This document shows, piece after piece, positions 51,586 through 59,233 of a stretch of DNA of 64,000 nucleotides. Within the stretch, counting starts at the first letter, position 1, and each line of letters opens with the position of its first letter. Source of the DNA: Candidatus Latescibacterota bacterium (GTDB lineage Bacteria > Latescibacterota > UBA2968 > UBA8231); assembly GCA_965261395.1 (NCBI GenBank), contig OZ253462.1, positions 1,504,001-1,568,000 on the forward strand. Direction: 5' to 3'. The position numbers were made by a program, and so were the translations under genes. The notes below the pieces were generated by a model. That model was not told where the DNA came from. It worked only from the letters and a program-made list of their open reading frames with translations, and ran no database searches.

Positions 51586-51662
51586 TGGTGGGCGATCCCA
51601 GACTCGAACTGGGGACATCCTGCTTGTAAGGCAGGCGCTCTGACCAACTGAGCTAACCGCCC
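51586..51662 (-). tRNA. tRNA-Val(TAC)
   Basis: GGGCGGTTAGCTCAGTTGG...CCTGC-CTTACAA-GCAGG...GTTCGAG...CGCCCACCA cloverleaf with encoded CCA. Confidence 0.97.
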
Positions 51663-51775: not shown

Positions 51776-52762
51776 GTGAAAAACACCATGACCAATGCCA
51801 CGCACGCCCTACTACTCCCCAACCAAGTTGACGAAGACCTCGCCGCGCACTTTGCCGCGCTCGGCGTTGGCACGATCTCGGCCTATAAGCTCTGGTGCCA
51901 TCGGCACAGCCTGGGCACAGCACTGGACAAAACGCCGCAAGAGCGGGCCACAGAACGGTCGCTTTTCGCCGCGTTGCAGCCCTCGGTAGATCCAGCAGCC
52001 AGCAAAGAGCACGACCCACGCCGCGCTGCGCTGATCAGTCGGCTGTTCAGCGGCGAGCTAGCGGACGAAAAGCTCAACGACCTGCTCTCGCGACTGCGAG
52101 TCGAACGCAACGCGCTGGCCAGCGACCCAGACGCCCAAAAGGCCCTAGGGCGGCTGGTGCTGCACGTCGAAAAATACGGCCACTTGCTGCGGCCCATGCC
52201 AGTGCTCAAGCGCCTCGGTGCCAACCGCGCCAATACCTATATCGCCGCCCTCGGACAGCTAGCGCGGCACCATCTCGACTGGCTGCGCCCAGTGGAGGCG
52301 TGGCGGCCCGATACGGTCAAGGAGCGACCGCAGTTCCAGTCACTGTCGCGGCATCTGCTCGCCCGCTACGAGGTCCCCGCGCCCATGGACACCGCTCTCG
52401 TCTGGACCATCTACGAACTCTGTACCTCGCAGCAGCTCCAGACCGAAGGCCGCATCATGGGCCACTGCGTCTTTTCTTACACCGAGCGGTGCCTTGCTGG
52501 CGACACCTCGATTTGGTCCCTGCGGGCGCTCAACGCCGACGCCGAAGAGGCTCTCGAAAAGCGCGTCCTCACCATCGCCGTTGACAACCGCCAGCGGGCC
52601 GTCACCCAAGCCCGAGGCAAGTTTAACATGGCGCTCAATCAGCGGGAGCGGCTAGAGAAGAGACGCCGGGCGGGATCCTTATACGTGCATCTGTTGCGCG
52701 AATCGGCGCGAATTTTGCGCTTGTGGAGCGATAAGGTGGGGTTGGTGCAGAAAGGCACGTAG
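51776..52762 (+). CDS. PcfJ-like domain protein, probably internally deleted
   Basis: WLRPVEAW, RHLLARYEVP, then directly WTIYEL...EGRIMGHCVFSY...SIWSL...QARGKFN. Confidence 0.6.
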   Translation: MKNTMTNATHALLLPNQVDEDLAAHFAALGVGTISAYKLWCHRHSLGTALDKTPQERATERSLFAALQPSVDPAASKEHDPRRAALISRLFSGELADEKLNDLLSRLRVERNALASDPDAQKALGRLVLHVEKYGHLLRPMPVLKRLGANRANTYIAALGQLARHHLDWLRPVEAWRPDTVKERPQFQSLSRHLLARYEVPAPMDTALVWTIYELCTSQQLQTEGRIMGHCVFSYTERCLAGDTSIWSLRALNADAEEALEKRVLTIAVDNRQRAVTQARGKFNMALNQRERLEKRRRAGSLYVHLLRESARILRLWSDKVGLVQKGT

Positions 52763-52800
52763 GGGCGGCTTGCAAACCGCCCCTACGCACGAGGCGCGAT
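52733..52800. repeat. 68-bp repeat copy 1, containing a GTAG-type REP palindrome
   Basis: GTAGGGGCGG-CTTGCAAA-CCGCCCCTAC at 52759-52786; near-identical to 53402-53469. Confidence 0.85.
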
Positions 52801-52810
52801 GTCAGATCGT

Positions 52811-53383
52811 CTATTCGAGCTTGACCATCTTTCGGGTGCGCAACTGATCGCCCACGCGTAGCTGATACAAATAGGCTCCAGAAGCGACGGGTTGGCCCTT
52901 ATCATCTCGGCCATCCCAAGTCAGCCGGTGTTCGCCCGCCGCCAACGGACCCGACCACACTTGGCGCACAAGCTGTCCCAAGAGGTTGTAGATGGCTACG
53001 TCCACAGCCTCGGCACCGGCAGGCACCGATAGGGGGATGGTCGTGGCCGGATTAAACGGATTGGGATAGTTCGCACCCAAGACAAAGTCCGACGGCGTAG
53101 CCTGCTCAATGGCGACGGCTGTGGGCGGACTGCTCTGGTTGATAAAGACGAAAGCCCCACCAGGAACCCCTAAAGCCCCTAAAGGACCGCCTTCCTCATT
53201 CCGCCCCAGCACGACCAGATCGGCGGCCCCATCGCCGTTGAGGTCGCCGGTATCATCAAGGAACCCCAAGCCGATGCCCGGGCCAAGGGTGAAAAAGTCG
53301 GGTTCTACGAACAACGTGCCGGGCGAGGCAAAAGCCCCGTATGGAGCCGCCAGCAGCAAAATAGCTACGATAAAGCGGTGCAT
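52811..53383 (-). CDS. Short secreted protein: one FG-GAP repeat plus a FlgD-Ig/T9SS-like C-terminal domain
   Basis: Signal peptide MHRFIVAILL, GDLNGDGAADLVV, NYPNPFNPATTI...IYNLLGQLVR...WDGRD...SGAYLY. Confidence 0.8.
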   Translation of the reverse strand: MHRFIVAILLLAAPYGAFASPGTLFVEPDFFTLGPGIGLGFLDDTGDLNGDGAADLVVLGRNEEGGPLGALGVPGGAFVFINQSSPPTAVAIEQATPSDFVLGANYPNPFNPATTIPLSVPAGAEAVDVAIYNLLGQLVRQVWSGPLAAGEHRLTWDGRDDKGQPVASGAYLYQLRVGDQLRTRKMVKLE

Positions 53384-53401
53384 AGTTACCTCCCTAAGTC
53401 G

Positions 53402-53469
53402 AAGGGTGGGTTGGTGCAGAAGGGCACGTAGGGACGGCTTGCGAACCGCCCCTAAGCACGAGGCGCGAT
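53402..53469. repeat. 68-bp repeat copy 2, containing a REP palindrome
   Basis: AAGGGTGGGTTGGTGCAGAAGGGCACGTAGGGACGG...CCGCCCCTAAGCACGAGGCGCGAT. Confidence 0.85.
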
Positions 53470-54404
53470 TAATGAGTGCCCGTTGAAAGCAGCGATTTGA
53501 TCTGTCCCCACGACTGGGCTTCGACGCTCGTAGCAGCAGGGAGCGCCGGTCGCCAAGCGGGCGAGTGTCCACCTAAGCCGTTGGTCAGATTGAACAAGTG
53601 GCTCCCGTCTATATCAACGGCCCATACCTCCCTAAAGCCGTCGCTAGTGGTAAAAGAAGTGAAGGCTACCCTCGTGCTGTTGGGTGCCCAAGTGAAGTCT
53701 TCGTATGGGACCATTACGCTGATGTCGGGATGCCAGAAAGGTTGATCGGGGTTAGGCAGATCGGGCAGGGGAATGATCCGAAAGAACGAGGCCCCATGAA
53801 TGAACGAAGACTCATCTTCCCTGACATCGCGGATATAGAGGCGGGCGATATTCTCTTCGTCCCCTTTTTCCCGCAGCACGATGCCTGCTTCTTTGTTCCC
53901 ATCCGGGGAAAGACTGGTGCGTGGCACCTCTCTCCAGTCCACGGGCGAGGAGTCACTTCCGTCCAGCGCCATAACGAAATATACACCTGTATCAGGACCG
54001 TCCCACTCGTCTGGAATCGGCCCGGTCGGGACGGCGGTATAGTAAAGGCTACGCCCGTCTTCAGACCACCAAAGCCTCAATTTTTCGACTGAATCGTCTG
54101 TCACCTGTTGCGGATTACTGCCGTCGGCGTCCATCAACCAAATCTCCCCGCCATACGGCCAAGTCTCATCGTCGTCAACGTCAATATAGGCGATCTTCGT
54201 TCCATCCGGGGACCAAACCGGGCTAGCGCAATACCGTCCTTGGGTCAGGTTTACGGGGTCGCTCCCGTCCGCATTCATAATCCACACGTCATCGTACCCG
54301 TCGCGGTGGGAGATAAATGCTATTTTACCGTCGGCTTGTCCCCAGCCAGCGACGGCCAATCCCAGCGTTGCCAAGCAGGCGATCAGTAGAGACCGATAGT
54401 TCAT
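53469..54404 (-). CDS. Secreted TolB-like (PD40) beta-propeller, paralog B, SWGQIK tail
   Basis: Signal peptide, KIAFIS, WIMNADGS, WSPDGTKIAY. Confidence 0.85.
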   Translation of the reverse strand: MNYRSLLIACLATLGLAVAGWGQADGKIAFISHRDGYDDVWIMNADGSDPVNLTQGRYCASPVWSPDGTKIAYIDVDDDETWPYGGEIWLMDADGSNPQQVTDDSVEKLRLWWSEDGRSLYYTAVPTGPIPDEWDGPDTGVYFVMALDGSDSSPVDWREVPRTSLSPDGNKEAGIVLREKGDEENIARLYIRDVREDESSFIHGASFFRIIPLPDLPNPDQPFWHPDISVMVPYEDFTWAPNSTRVAFTSFTTSDGFREVWAVDIDGSHLFNLTNGLGGHSPAWRPALPAATSVEAQSWGQIKSLLSTGTH

Positions 54405-54449
54405 AACGTGGCTCTTTTCAGAAGGATGAATGGGACGGTTAGATGTATG

Positions 54450-55316
54450 TCATGGGGCTGAAAGTAGCGATTTGATCCGTCCCCACGACTGGGCTTCGAC
54501 GCTCGTAGCAGCAGGAAGCGCCGGTCGCCAAGCGGGAGAGTGTCCACCTAAGCCGTTGGTCAATTCGACCCAGTTGTCCCCGTCTGTATCAGCCGCCCAA
54601 ATCTCAGACTGACCCATGAAATCGAGAAAACCAGAAAAGGCTATTCTCAGCCCGTCGGGCGACCAAGTAGGAAACGTTCGCCAATTTTCGTAGGGTTCGG
54701 TGTATATCAGTTTATTCTGGAGTGATTCAGGTAGGAGATAACCTGGGTGCATGTGATCACTGGCACTGGTGCGGATGTAGAAATTGACATGCTTATGGCC
54801 CCCTCCATCCCACAACGAGACGGTTGCTAGTAGGGTTCCGTCTGGAGAAACACCAGGGAGGAAGCGGCTATATACCTCTCTCCAGTCCACAGGCGACGCG
54901 CCACTGCCGTCCAGCGCCGTAACAAACGCATCAGGGCCGTCCCACTCGTCCGGAAGCGGCAAAGTCACGACGGCTACATAGTAAATGCCCCTCCCGTCTT
55001 CAGACCAAAAAAGCCGCGCTTTATCGACCGAACCGTCTGTCACCTGTTGCGGATTACTGCCATCGGCGTCCATCAACCAGATTTCGCCACTGGCAATATA
55101 GGCGATCTGCGTGCCATCTGGAGACCAAGCCGGGCTAGCGCAATCCCGTCCTTGGGTTAGGTTTATGGGATTGCTCCCATCCGCATTCATAATCCACACA
55201 TCACCGTACCCTGCGCGGTCGGAGATAAATGCGATTTTATCGCCGGCTTGCCCCCAGCCAGCGACAGCCAGTCCTAGCGTTGCCAAGCAGACGATCAGTA
55301 TGGATCGATAGTTCAT
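54450..55316 (-). CDS. Secreted TolB-like (PD40) beta-propeller, paralog A, SWGRIK tail
   Basis: Same N- and C-termini as paralog B; WSPDG repeats. Confidence 0.85.
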   Translation of the reverse strand: MNYRSILIVCLATLGLAVAGWGQAGDKIAFISDRAGYGDVWIMNADGSNPINLTQGRDCASPAWSPDGTQIAYIASGEIWLMDADGSNPQQVTDGSVDKARLFWSEDGRGIYYVAVVTLPLPDEWDGPDAFVTALDGSGASPVDWREVYSRFLPGVSPDGTLLATVSLWDGGGHKHVNFYIRTSASDHMHPGYLLPESLQNKLIYTEPYENWRTFPTWSPDGLRIAFSGFLDFMGQSEIWAADTDGDNWVELTNGLGGHSPAWRPALPAATSVEAQSWGRIKSLLSAP

Positions 55317-55472
55317 AACGCGGCTCCTTTCGCATGGCGGGATTGAGTAAGAAGAGTTCATAACACATCTCCTTTCAGATGGAGGGATTGGGTAAGAGTC
55401 TCTAACAAACCCTTTTTATGACGTTTAGGCTGATCTATATTCGATTCTTCGATGACGAATCAATTAGATATA

Positions 55473-55488
55473 AGCATACTTCGTGCCA
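55473..55488 (-). promoter_or_regulatory. Sigma54 (-24/-12) promoter
   Basis: TGGCAC-GAAGT-ATGCT on the minus strand, with correct GG-N10-GC spacing. Confidence 0.8.
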
Positions 55489-55504
55489 CACAGCAGACCC
55501 CGCA

Positions 55505-55538
55505 CAAAAAAATCCTTTGGGATATACCCTAAAGGATT
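55505..55538 (-). terminator. Probable intrinsic terminator of the activator gene
   Basis: AATCCTTTAGGG-TATAT-CCCAAAGGATT followed by a T run on the minus strand. Confidence 0.55.
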
Positions 55539-55622
55539 GGAAAACATAGCGGTTATATAGCGTGAAACTTCTTTTTATTAGGCGTGACGTCCGTCGTCGT
55601 TACAAGTTGATCTAAAAGATTC

Positions 55623-55677
55623 CGTATTTAATACGACTTTTTCCGTATTTAATACGATTCTCTTCGTATTTAATACG
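55623..55677. promoter_or_regulatory. Three phased palindromes, putative upstream activator sequences
   Basis: CGTATTTAATACG at 55623, 55644 and 55665 (exact 21-bp period). Confidence 0.75.
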
Positions 55678-55725
55678 ACTTTTCACCAACAGCGCAATGG
55701 TCCTAGTAGGTCGCGGCTTTCCCCT

Positions 55726-58700
55726 TTAAAGCCCTTTCTTCGGTCGTTGCAACCCGAACACGCGCATGCGGGAACGCAGTCGCTCCGGGTTCATGCCCAA
55801 CAAGTGCGCCGCGCCCCGCTCTCCATAGATCTTCCCCTCGGTAGCTTGGAGCGCCTCCACGATTTGCTGTTTCTCGTCTTTGAATTTGGCTGCAACCGGC
55901 GGCTCAAACGGCCTTTCTTTGGCCTCGTCTTCAGCAGCCAGCGGCACATCCTCCACCTGAATAACCTCCTCTTGGCATAGCACCACCGCCCGCCGGATCA
56001 AATGCTCCAACTCGCGCACATTCCCCGGCCACGCGTATGCCTGCAAATGCTTCACTACTCCGTCGCCCAAAGCGGGCACCGGTCGCTGCAGACTTTGGGC
56101 ATACCGACGCGCAAAATGCGCCGCCAAGACCGGGATGTCCTCCCGACGCTCCCGTAGCGGCGGCAGCTTCACTGGCCACACGCTCAAGCGGTAGAACAGA
56201 TCTTCCCGGAACGTTCCCGCCCGGATCTCCTGTTTCAGATCCTTGTTGGTCGCCGCAATCACCCGCACATCCACCGGGATGGACTGCTCGCCGCCGACGC
56301 GCGTCAGGTAGCGATTCTCCAGAATGCGGAGCAGTGCCTGTTGGACTTCTAACGACAGATCGCCGATTTCATCGAGGAACAAGGTGCCGTAGTTAGCTCG
56401 TTCAAAACAGCCGATATGCCGCTTCACGGCACCAGTAAAGGCCCCTCGCTCGTGGCCGAACAGCTCGCTCTCGATCAGCCCAGCGGGCAGGGAGCCGCAA
56501 TTGAGCGCGACAAAGGGCTGCCCTCGGCGCCGGCTCAGGTTGTGGATCCTCTGAGCCAGCACCCCCTTGCCCACCCCGGTCTCACCTAGCACCAGCATCG
56601 TCATATCGGTCTCGGCCATCTGTGCGACCTCCTCTAAGAGCTGGGTCATGACTTGGCTCTGGCTGAGAAAATCCTGATCCGAAGCCCGCAGCATGTGCAT
56701 GTGTTCTAGGCGCTGGAGGCGTGCGCTCTTCTCGTCGGGGAACACCTGCACATCGAGGCTGGCGACATCCGACATGAGGCCATCCCGATCTAAGGCCCGC
56801 ACCTCAAAGCAGAATTGGCCAACCGGTACGCGGTGGTACGACACTCTGTTGGAAGGGGTGAACGCACTCCACTCTTCCGCCGGGTCGTAGCCGACGAGCC
56901 GGTGACTATAGCGCATCTGCTCGGCCCCGCTCCTGAAGCTGAGGCCCTGGAAGTGGAACTGAATCTCGGGAGTGCTATCCGAGCAGGACACGGCTTGGGG
57001 CATCTCCAAGAGTCTTCCTGCCATGACTTGGCGGATCACGACACCTGGGGGTGTATCCCCAGGCTGGTATGCAATCAGCCCCGCCCTCGTCCCGAACCAC
57101 AACCGGCCCCGGCTATCGCGCAGGATGGCCTCGACAATATTCTCGAGGGTGGACTTGCCCAAACGGATGCTCTGAAACACTCGACCATCGTACTTCAGCA
57201 CGCCCCCACCGCTCGTCCCAATCCACAGACACTCCTGCTGGGGGTCAGCTACCAGAGCCAAGATGCTATTGACGGACAGATCGCCTTGGTCTGCCGTAAA
57301 CCGACGCACCTGCTGAGCGCGGTAGTCAAAGGCGAAAAGGCCGTTGGCCGTCCCGATCCAAAGCGTGCCCTCGTAGTCGCACAACGCGCTCACATAAGCG
57401 ACAGTTTCTATCCCGGCCATGTCAGACGCGTGGAAATGGCCGTCTTTGTAATAGTACAGAGCCGGCGTTGTCCCATAGCTACCGATCCACAAGGTGCCTT
57501 CGCGATCCTGCAACGCGACTCGGCAACAATCAGGTCCCTGCTTCTCGGCTATAAAGCGGTCGTCTTCTATCCTGCCCAAGCATCCCCCGGAAGTGCCGAC
57601 CCTTATGCACCCTTCCCGGTCTGGGTATAGATTGATTTCTTCGTAGCCGTTGTCTTTTGCCACCTCGATCACTTGGGCCTCTTTCCCCACCCCTTTAATT
57701 ACTTTGCCCTCGGGACTCCCGCGCCAGACTTGCCCCTCGCGATCTATCGCCAACGCCGTGACCTTGTGCCCGGTATCCACCGGGCGAATCCGGTCGTCTT
57801 CAAGACAGGCTAGCCCTCCCATCGTGCCGATCCAGACCCGGCCTTGGTGGTCTTCCCTTAGCTGTTGGACCTCGCGGTCAGGTAGGCCGTCGGCTTCGGT
57901 GTATAGCTGGACGCTGACCGGATCGCAAAAAACCAGCCCGCCGCCCCACAGTCCCACCCAGATATTTCCTTCGCGGTCCGCGTAGGTCAGCCGCGCATCC
58001 GAAAAGTGAATATCCGGCAAGCCGGCTGAAAAAGGATGCCATTCCTTCCCGTCGTACACTAGCACTCCCCGGCGAGTCATCCACAGCCAACCTCTATCGT
58101 CCAAGCGCACATGGCGCGTGCCGTGATTTACAGCCTCCGTCCCTTCGATAGCTGCGTCCGCATTGATCAGGTCGAGTTGTTGGCTGTCTGGATCATAGCG
58201 GCCGATAACGGCTTCGGTACCAACGTAGCGAAAAGCGATCCACAGAGGGCCGGAGGCGTCTTGGGCGAATTTCCACGGCCACTGCATTGCGCCGTTCTCC
58301 GCGCTCATGCGTCGACCGTCTAGGCTAATGACTCCCCACTTCAGCGTCGCCAGCCACGTCGTACCCGTCGCGTCGGTCGCCATATCGAACACCCGCCCTA
58401 GCGGCTGATCCACAATTTCTGTCACGCGCTCTACGCATCGCCCCTCGACAAACCAGCCTATCCCTGCGTCGGTCAGAACCCGTATCGAACCATCGGCTTG
58501 GGATTGCATGCCCAATATGTCGTTGGAGGGCAGCCCGTGCTCGGTGGTGTACACCTGAAAACCACGCCCGTCGTATGCAGCTAGCCCGCCTCCCAGCGTA
58601 CCGAAGAGCAGCCGCCCGTCCGCGTCCTCGGCAATGGTCATTACCGTGAGACTGGGTAGCCCGTCCGACAGGCCAAAGGTATCGAAATGTGCTCCGTCGA

Positions 58701-58875
58701 ACCGACTTACGCCGCCGTCGGCCGTGGCGATCCAGAGCAGGCCGAGCTGATCTTGATAGATGTCTTCCACCTGCATCCCAGCCAGCCCGTCGAAAACCGT
58801 GTACTGGTGCCCTATGATGCGATCAAAGGGGCTTCTCTGTCTTGGGGTTCTTGCGGGTCCGCTCGCGTCGTTCAC
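55726..58875 (-). CDS. Sigma54 enhancer-binding protein with an N-terminal Reg_prop beta-propeller/Y_Y_Y sensor
   Basis: Probable GTG at 58875; many DGL...D..G.LWIGT repeats, YSHRLVG..W..FEVRA; GETGVGK, ESELFGHERGAFTGA, LFLDEIG, FREDLFYRL, WPGNVREL, C-terminal HTH. Confidence 0.9.
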   Translation of the reverse strand: MNDASGPARTPRQRSPFDRIIGHQYTVFDGLAGMQVEDIYQDQLGLLWIATADGGVSRFDGAHFDTFGLSDGLPSLTVMTIAEDADGRLLFGTLGGGLAAYDGRGFQVYTTEHGLPSNDILGMQSQADGSIRVLTDAGIGWFVEGRCVERVTEIVDQPLGRVFDMATDATGTTWLATLKWGVISLDGRRMSAENGAMQWPWKFAQDASGPLWIAFRYVGTEAVIGRYDPDSQQLDLINADAAIEGTEAVNHGTRHVRLDDRGWLWMTRRGVLVYDGKEWHPFSAGLPDIHFSDARLTYADREGNIWVGLWGGGLVFCDPVSVQLYTEADGLPDREVQQLREDHQGRVWIGTMGGLACLEDDRIRPVDTGHKVTALAIDREGQVWRGSPEGKVIKGVGKEAQVIEVAKDNGYEEINLYPDREGCIRVGTSGGCLGRIEDDRFIAEKQGPDCCRVALQDREGTLWIGSYGTTPALYYYKDGHFHASDMAGIETVAYVSALCDYEGTLWIGTANGLFAFDYRAQQVRRFTADQGDLSVNSILALVADPQQECLWIGTSGGGVLKYDGRVFQSIRLGKSTLENIVEAILRDSRGRLWFGTRAGLIAYQPGDTPPGVVIRQVMAGRLLEMPQAVSCSDSTPEIQFHFQGLSFRSGAEQMRYSHRLVGYDPAEEWSAFTPSNRVSYHRVPVGQFCFEVRALDRDGLMSDVASLDVQVFPDEKSARLQRLEHMHMLRASDQDFLSQSQVMTQLLEEVAQMAETDMTMLVLGETGVGKGVLAQRIHNLSRRRGQPFVALNCGSLPAGLIESELFGHERGAFTGAVKRHIGCFERANYGTLFLDEIGDLSLEVQQALLRILENRYLTRVGGEQSIPVDVRVIAATNKDLKQEIRAGTFREDLFYRLSVWPVKLPPLRERREDIPVLAAHFARRYAQSLQRPVPALGDGVVKHLQAYAWPGNVRELEHLIRRAVVLCQEEVIQVEDVPLAAEDEAKERPFEPPVAAKFKDEKQQIVEALQATEGKIYGERGAAHLLGMNPERLRSRMRVFGLQRPKKGL

Positions 58876-59151
58876 CTCCGCCCTTTCTTTTCTAAAATTA
58901 TGATCGATTTGATCCATCCCCACGACTGGGCCTCGACGCTCGTAGCGGAAGGGGAGGCTGGTCGCCAAGCGGGCCATCTTCCGCCCGAGCCGTTGGTCAA
59001 ATTGACCAAGTTGCTCCCGTCTATATCAACTACCCAAATATCAAACGGGCCGACCCTACTGGGACCAGAAGCGAAGGCTATTCTCATGCCGTCCGGTGCC
59101 GGCCTGCCCCAGTGTTGCCAAGCAGACGATCAGTATGGACCGATAGTTCAT
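58872..59151 (-). pseudogene. Collapsed third TolB-like paralog
   Basis: MNYRSILIVCLATLG joined out of frame to PDGMRIAF...NLTNG...ATSVEAQSWGWIKS. Confidence 0.85.
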
Positions 59152-59203
59152 GATGTGGCTCCTTGCAAATGAGCGGATTGGGCAGGGCGTTAATAGTTGC
59201 TAG

Positions 59204-59233
59204 ATTATACAAGAAACCACGATTGCGCTGCAA
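59204..59233 (-). promoter_or_regulatory. Sigma70-like promoter for the remnant + activator operon
   Basis: TTGCAG-N18-TATAAT on the minus strand. Confidence 0.5.

Follow-up and report, generated by a model that had tools for sequence, protein, structure and literature searches.

A candidate one-component sigma54 cassette with a soluble propeller sensor and variable secreted cargo in Candidatus Latescibacterota

Organisation of the locus and the activator

A 64,000-nucleotide (nt) stretch of the closed 6.55-Mb genome of a Candidatus Latescibacterota bacterium (assembly GCA_965261395.1, contig OZ253462.1), referred to here as the window, was used for the analysis; feature coordinates are positions within the window. 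Between 52733 and 59233 it carries an activator of 1049 amino acids (aa) followed by an array of palindromes, a hairpin, a sigma54 -24/-12 box and three cargo genes, an arrangement suggesting a one-component cassette in which the activator probably controls the genes behind it (Table 1). The first-pass annotation had listed these elements in order on one strand, together with a sigma70-like promoter and a collapsed TolB-like gene, and all were located where claimed on the minus strand, on which all cassette genes lie.

Table 1. Features of the cassette and its borders in the window
Feature	Position	Strand	Remarks
Weak sigma70-like promoter	59204..59233	-	Perfect -10 at 59204-59209; -35 matching 3/6; 18-nt spacer
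Collapsed TolB-like pseudogene	58872..59151	-	5' ~15 codons joined out of frame to 3' ~75 codons; stop overlaps activator start
Activator, 1049 aa, GTG start	55726..58875	-	Two Reg_prop propellers, Y_Y_Y, sigma54 AAA+ (GAFTGA), C-terminal helix-turn-helix (HTH) with Ser-type recognition helix
Enhancer array	55623..55677		Three CGTAT-N3-ATACG units, 21-nt period; 135 nt from -24 box
Hairpin and T tract	55504..55545	-	Likely intrinsic terminator; IHF-like core overlaps 5' arm
Sigma54 -24/-12 box	55474..55488	-	Predicted start near 55462
Cargo 1, PD40/TolB-like propeller, 288 aa	54450..55316	-	Signal-peptide-like start; SWG-x-IK tail
Cargo 2, PD40 paralog of cargo 1, 311 aa	53469..54404	-	Signal-peptide-like start; conserved ends, divergent middle
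68-nt hairpin repeat, copy 1	53402..53469		Related copies 3' of cargo genes at other loci
Cargo 3, FG-GAP/FlgD gene, 190 aa	52811..53383	-	Type IX secretion system-type tail; in-frame deletion derivative of ~525-aa gene
68-nt hairpin repeat, copy 2	52733..52800		Overlaps 3' end of convergent PcfJ-like gene; right edge of insert

Analysis of the activator with Pfam revealed Reg_prop, Y_Y_Y, Sigma54_activat and AAA lid domains. PF00158 (Sigma54_activat) scored 227.8 bits against a cut-off of 20.2, the GAFTGA motif is exact and the Walker A, Walker B and sensor II motifs are intact, in agreement with the propeller-sensor activator of about 1050 aa proposed earlier. HisKA, HATPase, receiver and AraC domains were absent from the 12 Pfam families matched at E 0.01. 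Over its first 700 residues the activator resembles, by profile, periplasmic sensors of the Bacteroides hybrid two-component systems (HTCS; 3v9f, E 5.6e-58; 4a2l, E 4.7e-50), and a structure search of the model found 4a2m (E 1e-34); the quality of the full-length model is low in Y_Y_Y and AAA+ (mean predicted local distance difference test, pLDDT, 64; predicted template modelling score, pTM, 0.45) and was used for the propellers only.

The N-terminus of the window activator is hydrophilic, with neither a signal peptide nor a membrane helix, and a hydrophobic linker between Y_Y_Y and AAA+ was found in none of the 72 full-length proteins (19-residue hydropathy maximum 1.11). Among the best 150 matches in a 50%-representative library the fusion was recognised by motif in 74, and 20 hydrophobic linkers and 24 signal-like starts indicate that soluble and membrane-anchored versions both exist. 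Six soluble propeller activators (P0125, P0133, P0142, P0148, P0154 and P0168) share an extra, unannotated N-terminal segment of about 110-150 aa. A distant propeller/Y_Y_Y protein of 824 aa (G000:C1 5897239-5899600) has an HTH end and no AAA+ match; it is possibly an activator that lost its ATPase.

The C-terminal HTH is of the Fis type: HTH_8 is on record for many relatives and the window model has three C-terminal helices, although Pfam HTH_8 gave no match in the window activator at E 0.01. The best NCBIfam matches for the AAA+/HTH module were NifA and NorR, both below cut-off. An AAA+ domain, GAFTGA, an HTH, a -24/-12 box that has sites upstream of it, and a genomic copy of rpoN together point to a sigma54 enhancer-binding protein.

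The three phased palindromes were confirmed: the 13-nt palindrome CGTATTTAATACG starts at 55623, 55644 and 55665. It has just three matches in the whole genome at 0 or 1 mismatch, all in the array, and hence no trans regulon of the window activator appeared at that threshold. The array also parses as two ATACG-N8-CGTAT units. The -24/-12 promoter proposed earlier likewise held; its box fits the sigma54 consensus, and the pattern TGGCAC[AG]N4[TA]TGC occurs 26 times across the genome. The regulatory block is not an assembly artefact, because a contig of DNA run X2 spans 55468-56476 with 0 differences. RNA runs gave small shares (0.05-0.14), and the X16 and X18 contigs hit activator, cargo and flanking genes alike, mostly those of relatives, and carry neither strand nor start; these reads speak neither for nor against expression and say nothing on habitat. 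An Rfam search over 51.5-60 kb returned tRNA-Val and one chance match. This tRNA-Val(TAC) lies at 51586-51662, just past the PcfJ-like gene, and the adjoining region is highly variable among relatives.

Recurrence of the cassette and its cargo

A total of 130 distinct HTH ends, drawn from 31 loci, 60 fetched regions, 10 loci of the genus and the window's own genome, were used for the comparison. The 60 regions were chosen among the matches listed (identity of about 48% or more; 20 further matches were left out), and 73 frames of at least 1000 aa with a helix of the window clade formed the full-length set. The results apply within the class; of ten clusters looked up, one carried a taxon name.

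The genome of the window holds five close loci (1.03, 1.56, 2.21, 2.47 and 4.64 Mb), whose propellers are 60-71% identical and of which the 2.21 copy is broken, and all five genome-wide matches of the hairpin pattern lie behind these five activators. Further hairpin cores occur at G000:C1 2207158 (with array and box, behind the 2.21-Mb locus) and at 4679326 (no box). The AAA+-HTH end was matched in 23 of 24 other genomes drawn from the genus. A strict -24/-12 box lies no more than 400 nt downstream of the stop codon in 60 of the 73 full-length relatives, where 0.0038 is expected per 400 nt, and is in most cases preceded by both a repeat array and a hairpin that covaries; a looser box pattern at more than 120 nt was found in 61 of 73. 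The check proposed with the first-pass annotation, that fusions of this type be followed by palindromes, box and secreted genes, was thereby carried out with a positive outcome. Of 18 full-length homologs in another family of this class, 13 are followed by dyads, a hairpin of a different kind and a box, and in 12 of these 13 the first gene is signal-like; the other five have just a divergent upstream box. The self-contained layout thus recurs at the five genome loci, in close relatives and in distant homologs. In L193-L210, which belong to that second family, the long hairpin ahead of the T tract carries one enhancer dyad in its loop. Tandem cassettes (activator-promoter-cargo-activator, or two adjoining activators) occur in L002, L003, L064, L067, L073, L081 and L083, and therefore one activator may drive the next. 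The 31 loci with close relatives are mostly labelled Candidatus Latescibacterota, some Gemmatimonadota and two others; Latescibacterota is also commonest in an ESM Atlas cluster of 70 members, eight of known phylum. Naming conventions hint at a possible association with sponges.

Behind 89 boxes, 279 co-oriented open reading frames (ORFs) fell into 76 single-linkage groups; the arrays were delimited by a gap rule and may extend into unrelated genes. By a crude hydropathy rule, 151 of 194 cargo proteins of at least 200 aa start with a signal-peptide-like segment, compared with 1052 of 3896 in the genome. Nine different arrays were found in the window and the eight closest copies with visible cargo. 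The array of variable secreted propellers claimed earlier is therefore variable and signal-peptide-enriched; it does not consist of propellers only, and Pfam analysis of 33 cargo proteins revealed FG-GAP/FlgD, PD40, WD40, LRR and LDL-receptor repeats, redoxins, A24 peptidase, subtilases (outside the window) and a metallopeptidase, with eight proteins matching no family. Secreted peptides of about 90 aa, whose leader is near-constant and whose cysteine-rich mature part is hypervariable, were seen in 15 copies (G000:C1 about 4.634 Mb; L067, L068, L076, L084, L088, L098, L101, L104, L106, L108); the one tested had no Pfam match, and they often share an array with A24 peptidase, redoxin and FG-GAP/FlgD genes.

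The two TolB-like paralogs claimed for the window are PD40 genes and are 59% identical. Across 25 such paralogs identity ranges from 49 to 92%, with conserved ends (0.82-0.88) and a variable middle (0.51-0.74). The cargo model is a TolB-like propeller (pLDDT 75) whose best fold match is TolB (E 7e-13, template modelling score 0.44-0.53). TolB of Tol-Pal thus shares the PD40 repeats, whereas cargo 1 and 2, of about 290-310 aa, are tandem variable paralogs with a SWG-x-IK tail (54450-54500 and 53469-53520), lack tol-pal neighbours and score 82.5 and 68 bits against the TIGR02800 cut-off of 343. The tail ends 34 of 3896 long ORFs in the genome and is probably a lineage-specific sorting signal. 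The tail of cargo 3 matches TIGR04183 (39 bits, cut-off 23). A conserved structured leader behind the box was rejected, as the 190 nt that follow differ by eye among the 10 closest copies beyond about 20 nt. A recombinase or reverse transcriptase (shufflon, diversity-generating retroelement or phase variation) was absent from the 11 ORFs scanned at 48-63 kb.

One-component sigma54 activators of the NorR, NifA, FhlA and XylR/DmpR types have the same AAA+ GAFTGA module and C-terminal HTH. Their inputs are GAF, PAS or V4R domains, whereas the window protein has a double propeller/Y_Y_Y of about 700 aa, with enhancer and promoter directly behind its HTH codons; unlike the NorR and NifA types, its genome also has five close paralog loci, with exchanged helix-enhancer patches (see below) and variable cargo. 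According to PMC2831303, norVW has three enhancer sites, as the window array does, and multiple sites serve ring assembly by NorR. The tandem Reg_prop propellers and Y_Y_Y are shared with the Bacteroides hybrid two-component sensors BT4663, BT3049 and BT4673, the best matches by sequence and fold; in contrast to these, the window protein lacks a signal peptide and a membrane helix as well as kinase, receiver and AraC domains, its output by motif is sigma54 activation, and its targets lie outside polysaccharide-utilisation loci. Among one-component regulators, the closest to use this sensor is BguR, which its preprint (bioRxiv 10.64898/2026.01.10.698779) describes as membrane-spanning. BguR also places the sensor on a DNA-binding output without phosphorelay and has a motif between regulator and first target gene; it differs in having a signal peptide, a single membrane helix, a GerE HTH and no ATPase, while the window protein is soluble and by its motifs ATP- and sigma54-dependent.

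The claim that no system of this layout has been described stands in part. Searches of open full text, supplements excluded and some sources available in part, turned up neither a soluble sigma54 activator with Reg_prop and Y_Y_Y nor the cassette nor a helix-enhancer exchange, and term look-ups in PMC12316311 and PMC12993501 returned none of these either. The layout of an activator next to its target is, however, already known: PMC4641369 reports co-localisation with the target promoter in 10 of 13 Desulfovibrio cases, one of them downstream. Sigma54 control of the cell exterior is likewise a published theme (PMC3162934, in which "propeller" has 0 occurrences).

The mechanism that these results suggest would begin with a transcript of the activator that starts at an upstream promoter and stops at the hairpin. 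HTH domains would hold the activator on the repeats, at 135 nt upstream of the box, and multiple sites may serve ring assembly, as for NorR. In the cytoplasm the double propeller would bind a ligand, most likely an oligosaccharide brought in by import or some polar molecule like it; binding would free the AAA+ module, which would open the sigma54 promoter across a DNA bend, so that the array of secreted proteins is transcribed; looping would probably be aided by an IHF-like protein. For the ligand, the ancestry of the sensor gives a saccharide about an even chance, and the cargo argues for caution. The 33 cargo proteins sampled contain no glycoside-hydrolase or transporter family, which weakens the sugar guess. 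The cargo of surface and eukaryote-like repeat proteins, redoxins, cysteine-rich peptides and proteases, as opposed to sugar catabolism, together with a cytoplasmic placement that releases the sensor from periplasmic glycan sensing, would fit propellers that sense a protein or phosphopeptide derived from host, phage or stress, in which case the cassettes would form a stress- or host-response system. We consider this somewhat unlikely, given that HTCS domains are the closest sensors of solved structure, with one of them annotated as sensing heparin/heparan sulphate, that BguR uses the same sensor for beta-glucan according to its preprint, and that sulfatases lie in the neighbourhood.

The state of the window copy and the hairpin

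The sigma70-like promoter and the collapsed TolB-like gene, both counted as parts of the system earlier, exist and lie outside the cassette as relics of a resident locus, judging from sequence comparison: the closest copies have other genes upstream (in seven, a purM-like gene), and the corresponding slot of relatives holds activator-less TolB-like genes. A promoter scan did not call the sigma70-like site (3 sites found, 3.8 expected). The junction of the collapsed gene is real and recurs in database protein P0001, which stands for 92 sequences. The slot between the enolase-family and PcfJ-like genes has no activator in any of the 14 relatives' loci with both flanks; six of these have TolB-like genes or remnants and three are nearly empty. 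Window positions 59100-59225 are 72-79% identical to the region upstream of activator-less TolB-like genes in L176, L181 and L185. Of 20 slot loci, 8 have one box-like match on the opposite strand. On the simplest reading, the cassette moved into the resident TolB-like locus via shared gene ends and the 68-nt hairpin repeat and later lost internal pieces, and the resident promoter now probably drives the activator.

Internal deletion is visible at three places near the window copy, which may be decaying. Besides the collapsed TolB-like gene, cargo 3, the FG-GAP/FlgD gene reported earlier, is indeed present as residues 1-46 fused to the last 150 of a 525-aa relative, and the PcfJ-like gene (51776-52762) encodes 328 aa compared with 518 aa in relatives, an in-frame loss of about 580 nt. 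A second, independent TolB-like collapse directly behind a sigma54 box (L002:11390-11600) indicates that such genes delete repeatedly between their 5' and 3' ends. These deletions, a window hairpin short of one pair, and the several relatives in which enhancer and promoter are lost and cargo directly follows the activator would also suit a window cassette that fell silent or became constitutive after moving, in a family that otherwise works as described. Such decay is unlikely: the activator frame, its catalytic motifs, the three perfect palindromes and the box are intact, identity to L005 is 86-98% throughout, and both TolB-like cargo genes are full length for their family.

The terminator-like hairpin was also confirmed. 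The stem at 55511-55538 with its T tract folds at -12.5 kcal/mol (z -2.3; as good in 4 of 200 shuffles), although a simple terminator scan did not list it. Over 67 distinct copies the stem has 667 reference pairs, 13 compensatory pairs, 35 G-U pairs and 22 mismatches, and wherever the distance was measured, in 70 cases, its end lies 25-28 nt before the box. A covarying stem followed by a U tract makes it likely to be an intrinsic terminator insulating the sigma54 promoter from activator read-through. The constant distance to the box, the conserved unpaired bases 5' of the stem and an IHF-like core in 45 of 67 copies, scored against the IHF consensus, would also be expected of a DNA site for an IHF-like bend or a protein dyad; the genome has three IHF/HU-family genes. 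That this is its main role is improbable, as G-U pairs outnumber mismatches, the T tract follows on the transcribed strand, and the other family has a different hairpin with a T tract in the same region. The terminator role and the DNA-site role can coexist.

Recognition helix, enhancer and the meaning of the cassette

Comparison of 75 HTH ends with a box and a readable array revealed that one recognition-helix residue tracks the repeat half-site. Ser at this position goes with CGTA in all 29 cases and Tyr in none of 46, where the half-sites are CGTG (22), CGTT (16), TGTG (4) and TGTT (4). A search with the HTH against the PDB gave chance propeller matches and one weak match (E 0.07); the residue is therefore presumed, from the usual HTH geometry, to contact bases, and binding would follow from this. 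In a tree built from 72 sensor domains by a quick IQ-TREE run (11 rows without an array uncounted), both traits change 13 times, and independent pairs agree in 11 of 11 (p about 0.001), a sign test that overstates independence. Identity between L084 and L104 is 96-99% in the first 2.7 kb, drops to 56-68% from -50 to +100 nt around the stop codon and is 92-98% beyond; L013 with L009 and L072 with L073 have similar profiles. These mosaic profiles argue that helix and enhancer move together, and, as the helix codons lie 100-250 nt from the enhancer, both would be exchanged between paralogs as one short patch, with sensors and cargo arrays swapped on its two flanks. In 11 loci of one clade the final ~158 nt of the activator occur again 3' of cargo as orphan copies, one retaining array and box; their shared boundary suggests a single old duplication of the same block. 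What is new here is the tracking of the half-site by one helix residue, together with near-identical activators whose differences are confined to a patch of ~150 nt that covers helix and repeats; the enhancer mechanism itself is classical.

Several points weigh against this account of the cassette, in addition to the deletions and the hydropathy rule named above. The exact GAFTGA is present in 57 of 103 related AAA+ domains and lacking in 46 (GAFTSA 27, GAFTNA 9, GSFTGA 4, GSFTDA 1, unparsed 5), most of which are still boxed. The full module is missing in 12 of 73 activators: three form a separate branch, one kept the box and lost the array, and eight have cargo or another activator immediately behind them. 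Given the physical linkage of helix and enhancer, covariation can arise from co-transfer alone, and the 11 pairs are not independent co-evolution. Half-site spacing of the Ser type is variable (reverse-forward gap 5-8 nt, forward-reverse 2-7 nt), which is odd for a rigid dimer, and both dimer registers occur among the loci. With these points considered, the one-component sigma54 mechanism as a whole remains probable.

That linkage, the variable spacing and register, the enhancer class shared by several paralogs per genome (two CGTGG types in the window genome) and the (C/T)GT core common to all half-sites would also be seen if the promoter module were real, all paralogs read all arrays and gene conversion moved the linked patch without selection for specificity; such hitch-hiking is quite unlikely, because none of the 75 pairs is mismatched though the trait changes repeatedly on flank trees (13 times on that of the 111 nt before the helix, 9 on that of the 120 nt before the box; short alignments, weak trees), the stretch from stop codon to array takes several unrelated forms among Ser-type loci, three proteins combining Ser with the Lys typical of Tyr types carry CGTAT, and other helices pair with other arrays (TGTTC, TATGC).

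Beyond the cassette mechanism itself, a recombination-driven plug-board, in which sensor, address (helix and enhancer, one patch of ~150-250 nt) and payload (repeat proteins that are secreted, and cysteine-rich peptides) are reassorted independently under selection, is offered tentatively, at slightly less than even expectation. If true, it would mean strain-specific wiring of cytoplasmic signals to the surface repertoire and a natural one-residue specificity code for sigma54 enhancers. Naturally varied activator-enhancer pairs, with a half-site predicted by a single helix residue, may help to explain orthogonal sigma54 switches and to engineer them. The sensor fold, described as periplasmic, is here used free of any membrane anchor and joined straight to an AAA+ ring. 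In the one paper on sponge Latescibacterota consulted (PMC12993501) "sigma" and "regulator" have 0 occurrences and the control of secreted proteins is undiscussed; the cassette may offer a way by which this lineage regulates its repeat-rich secreted proteins.

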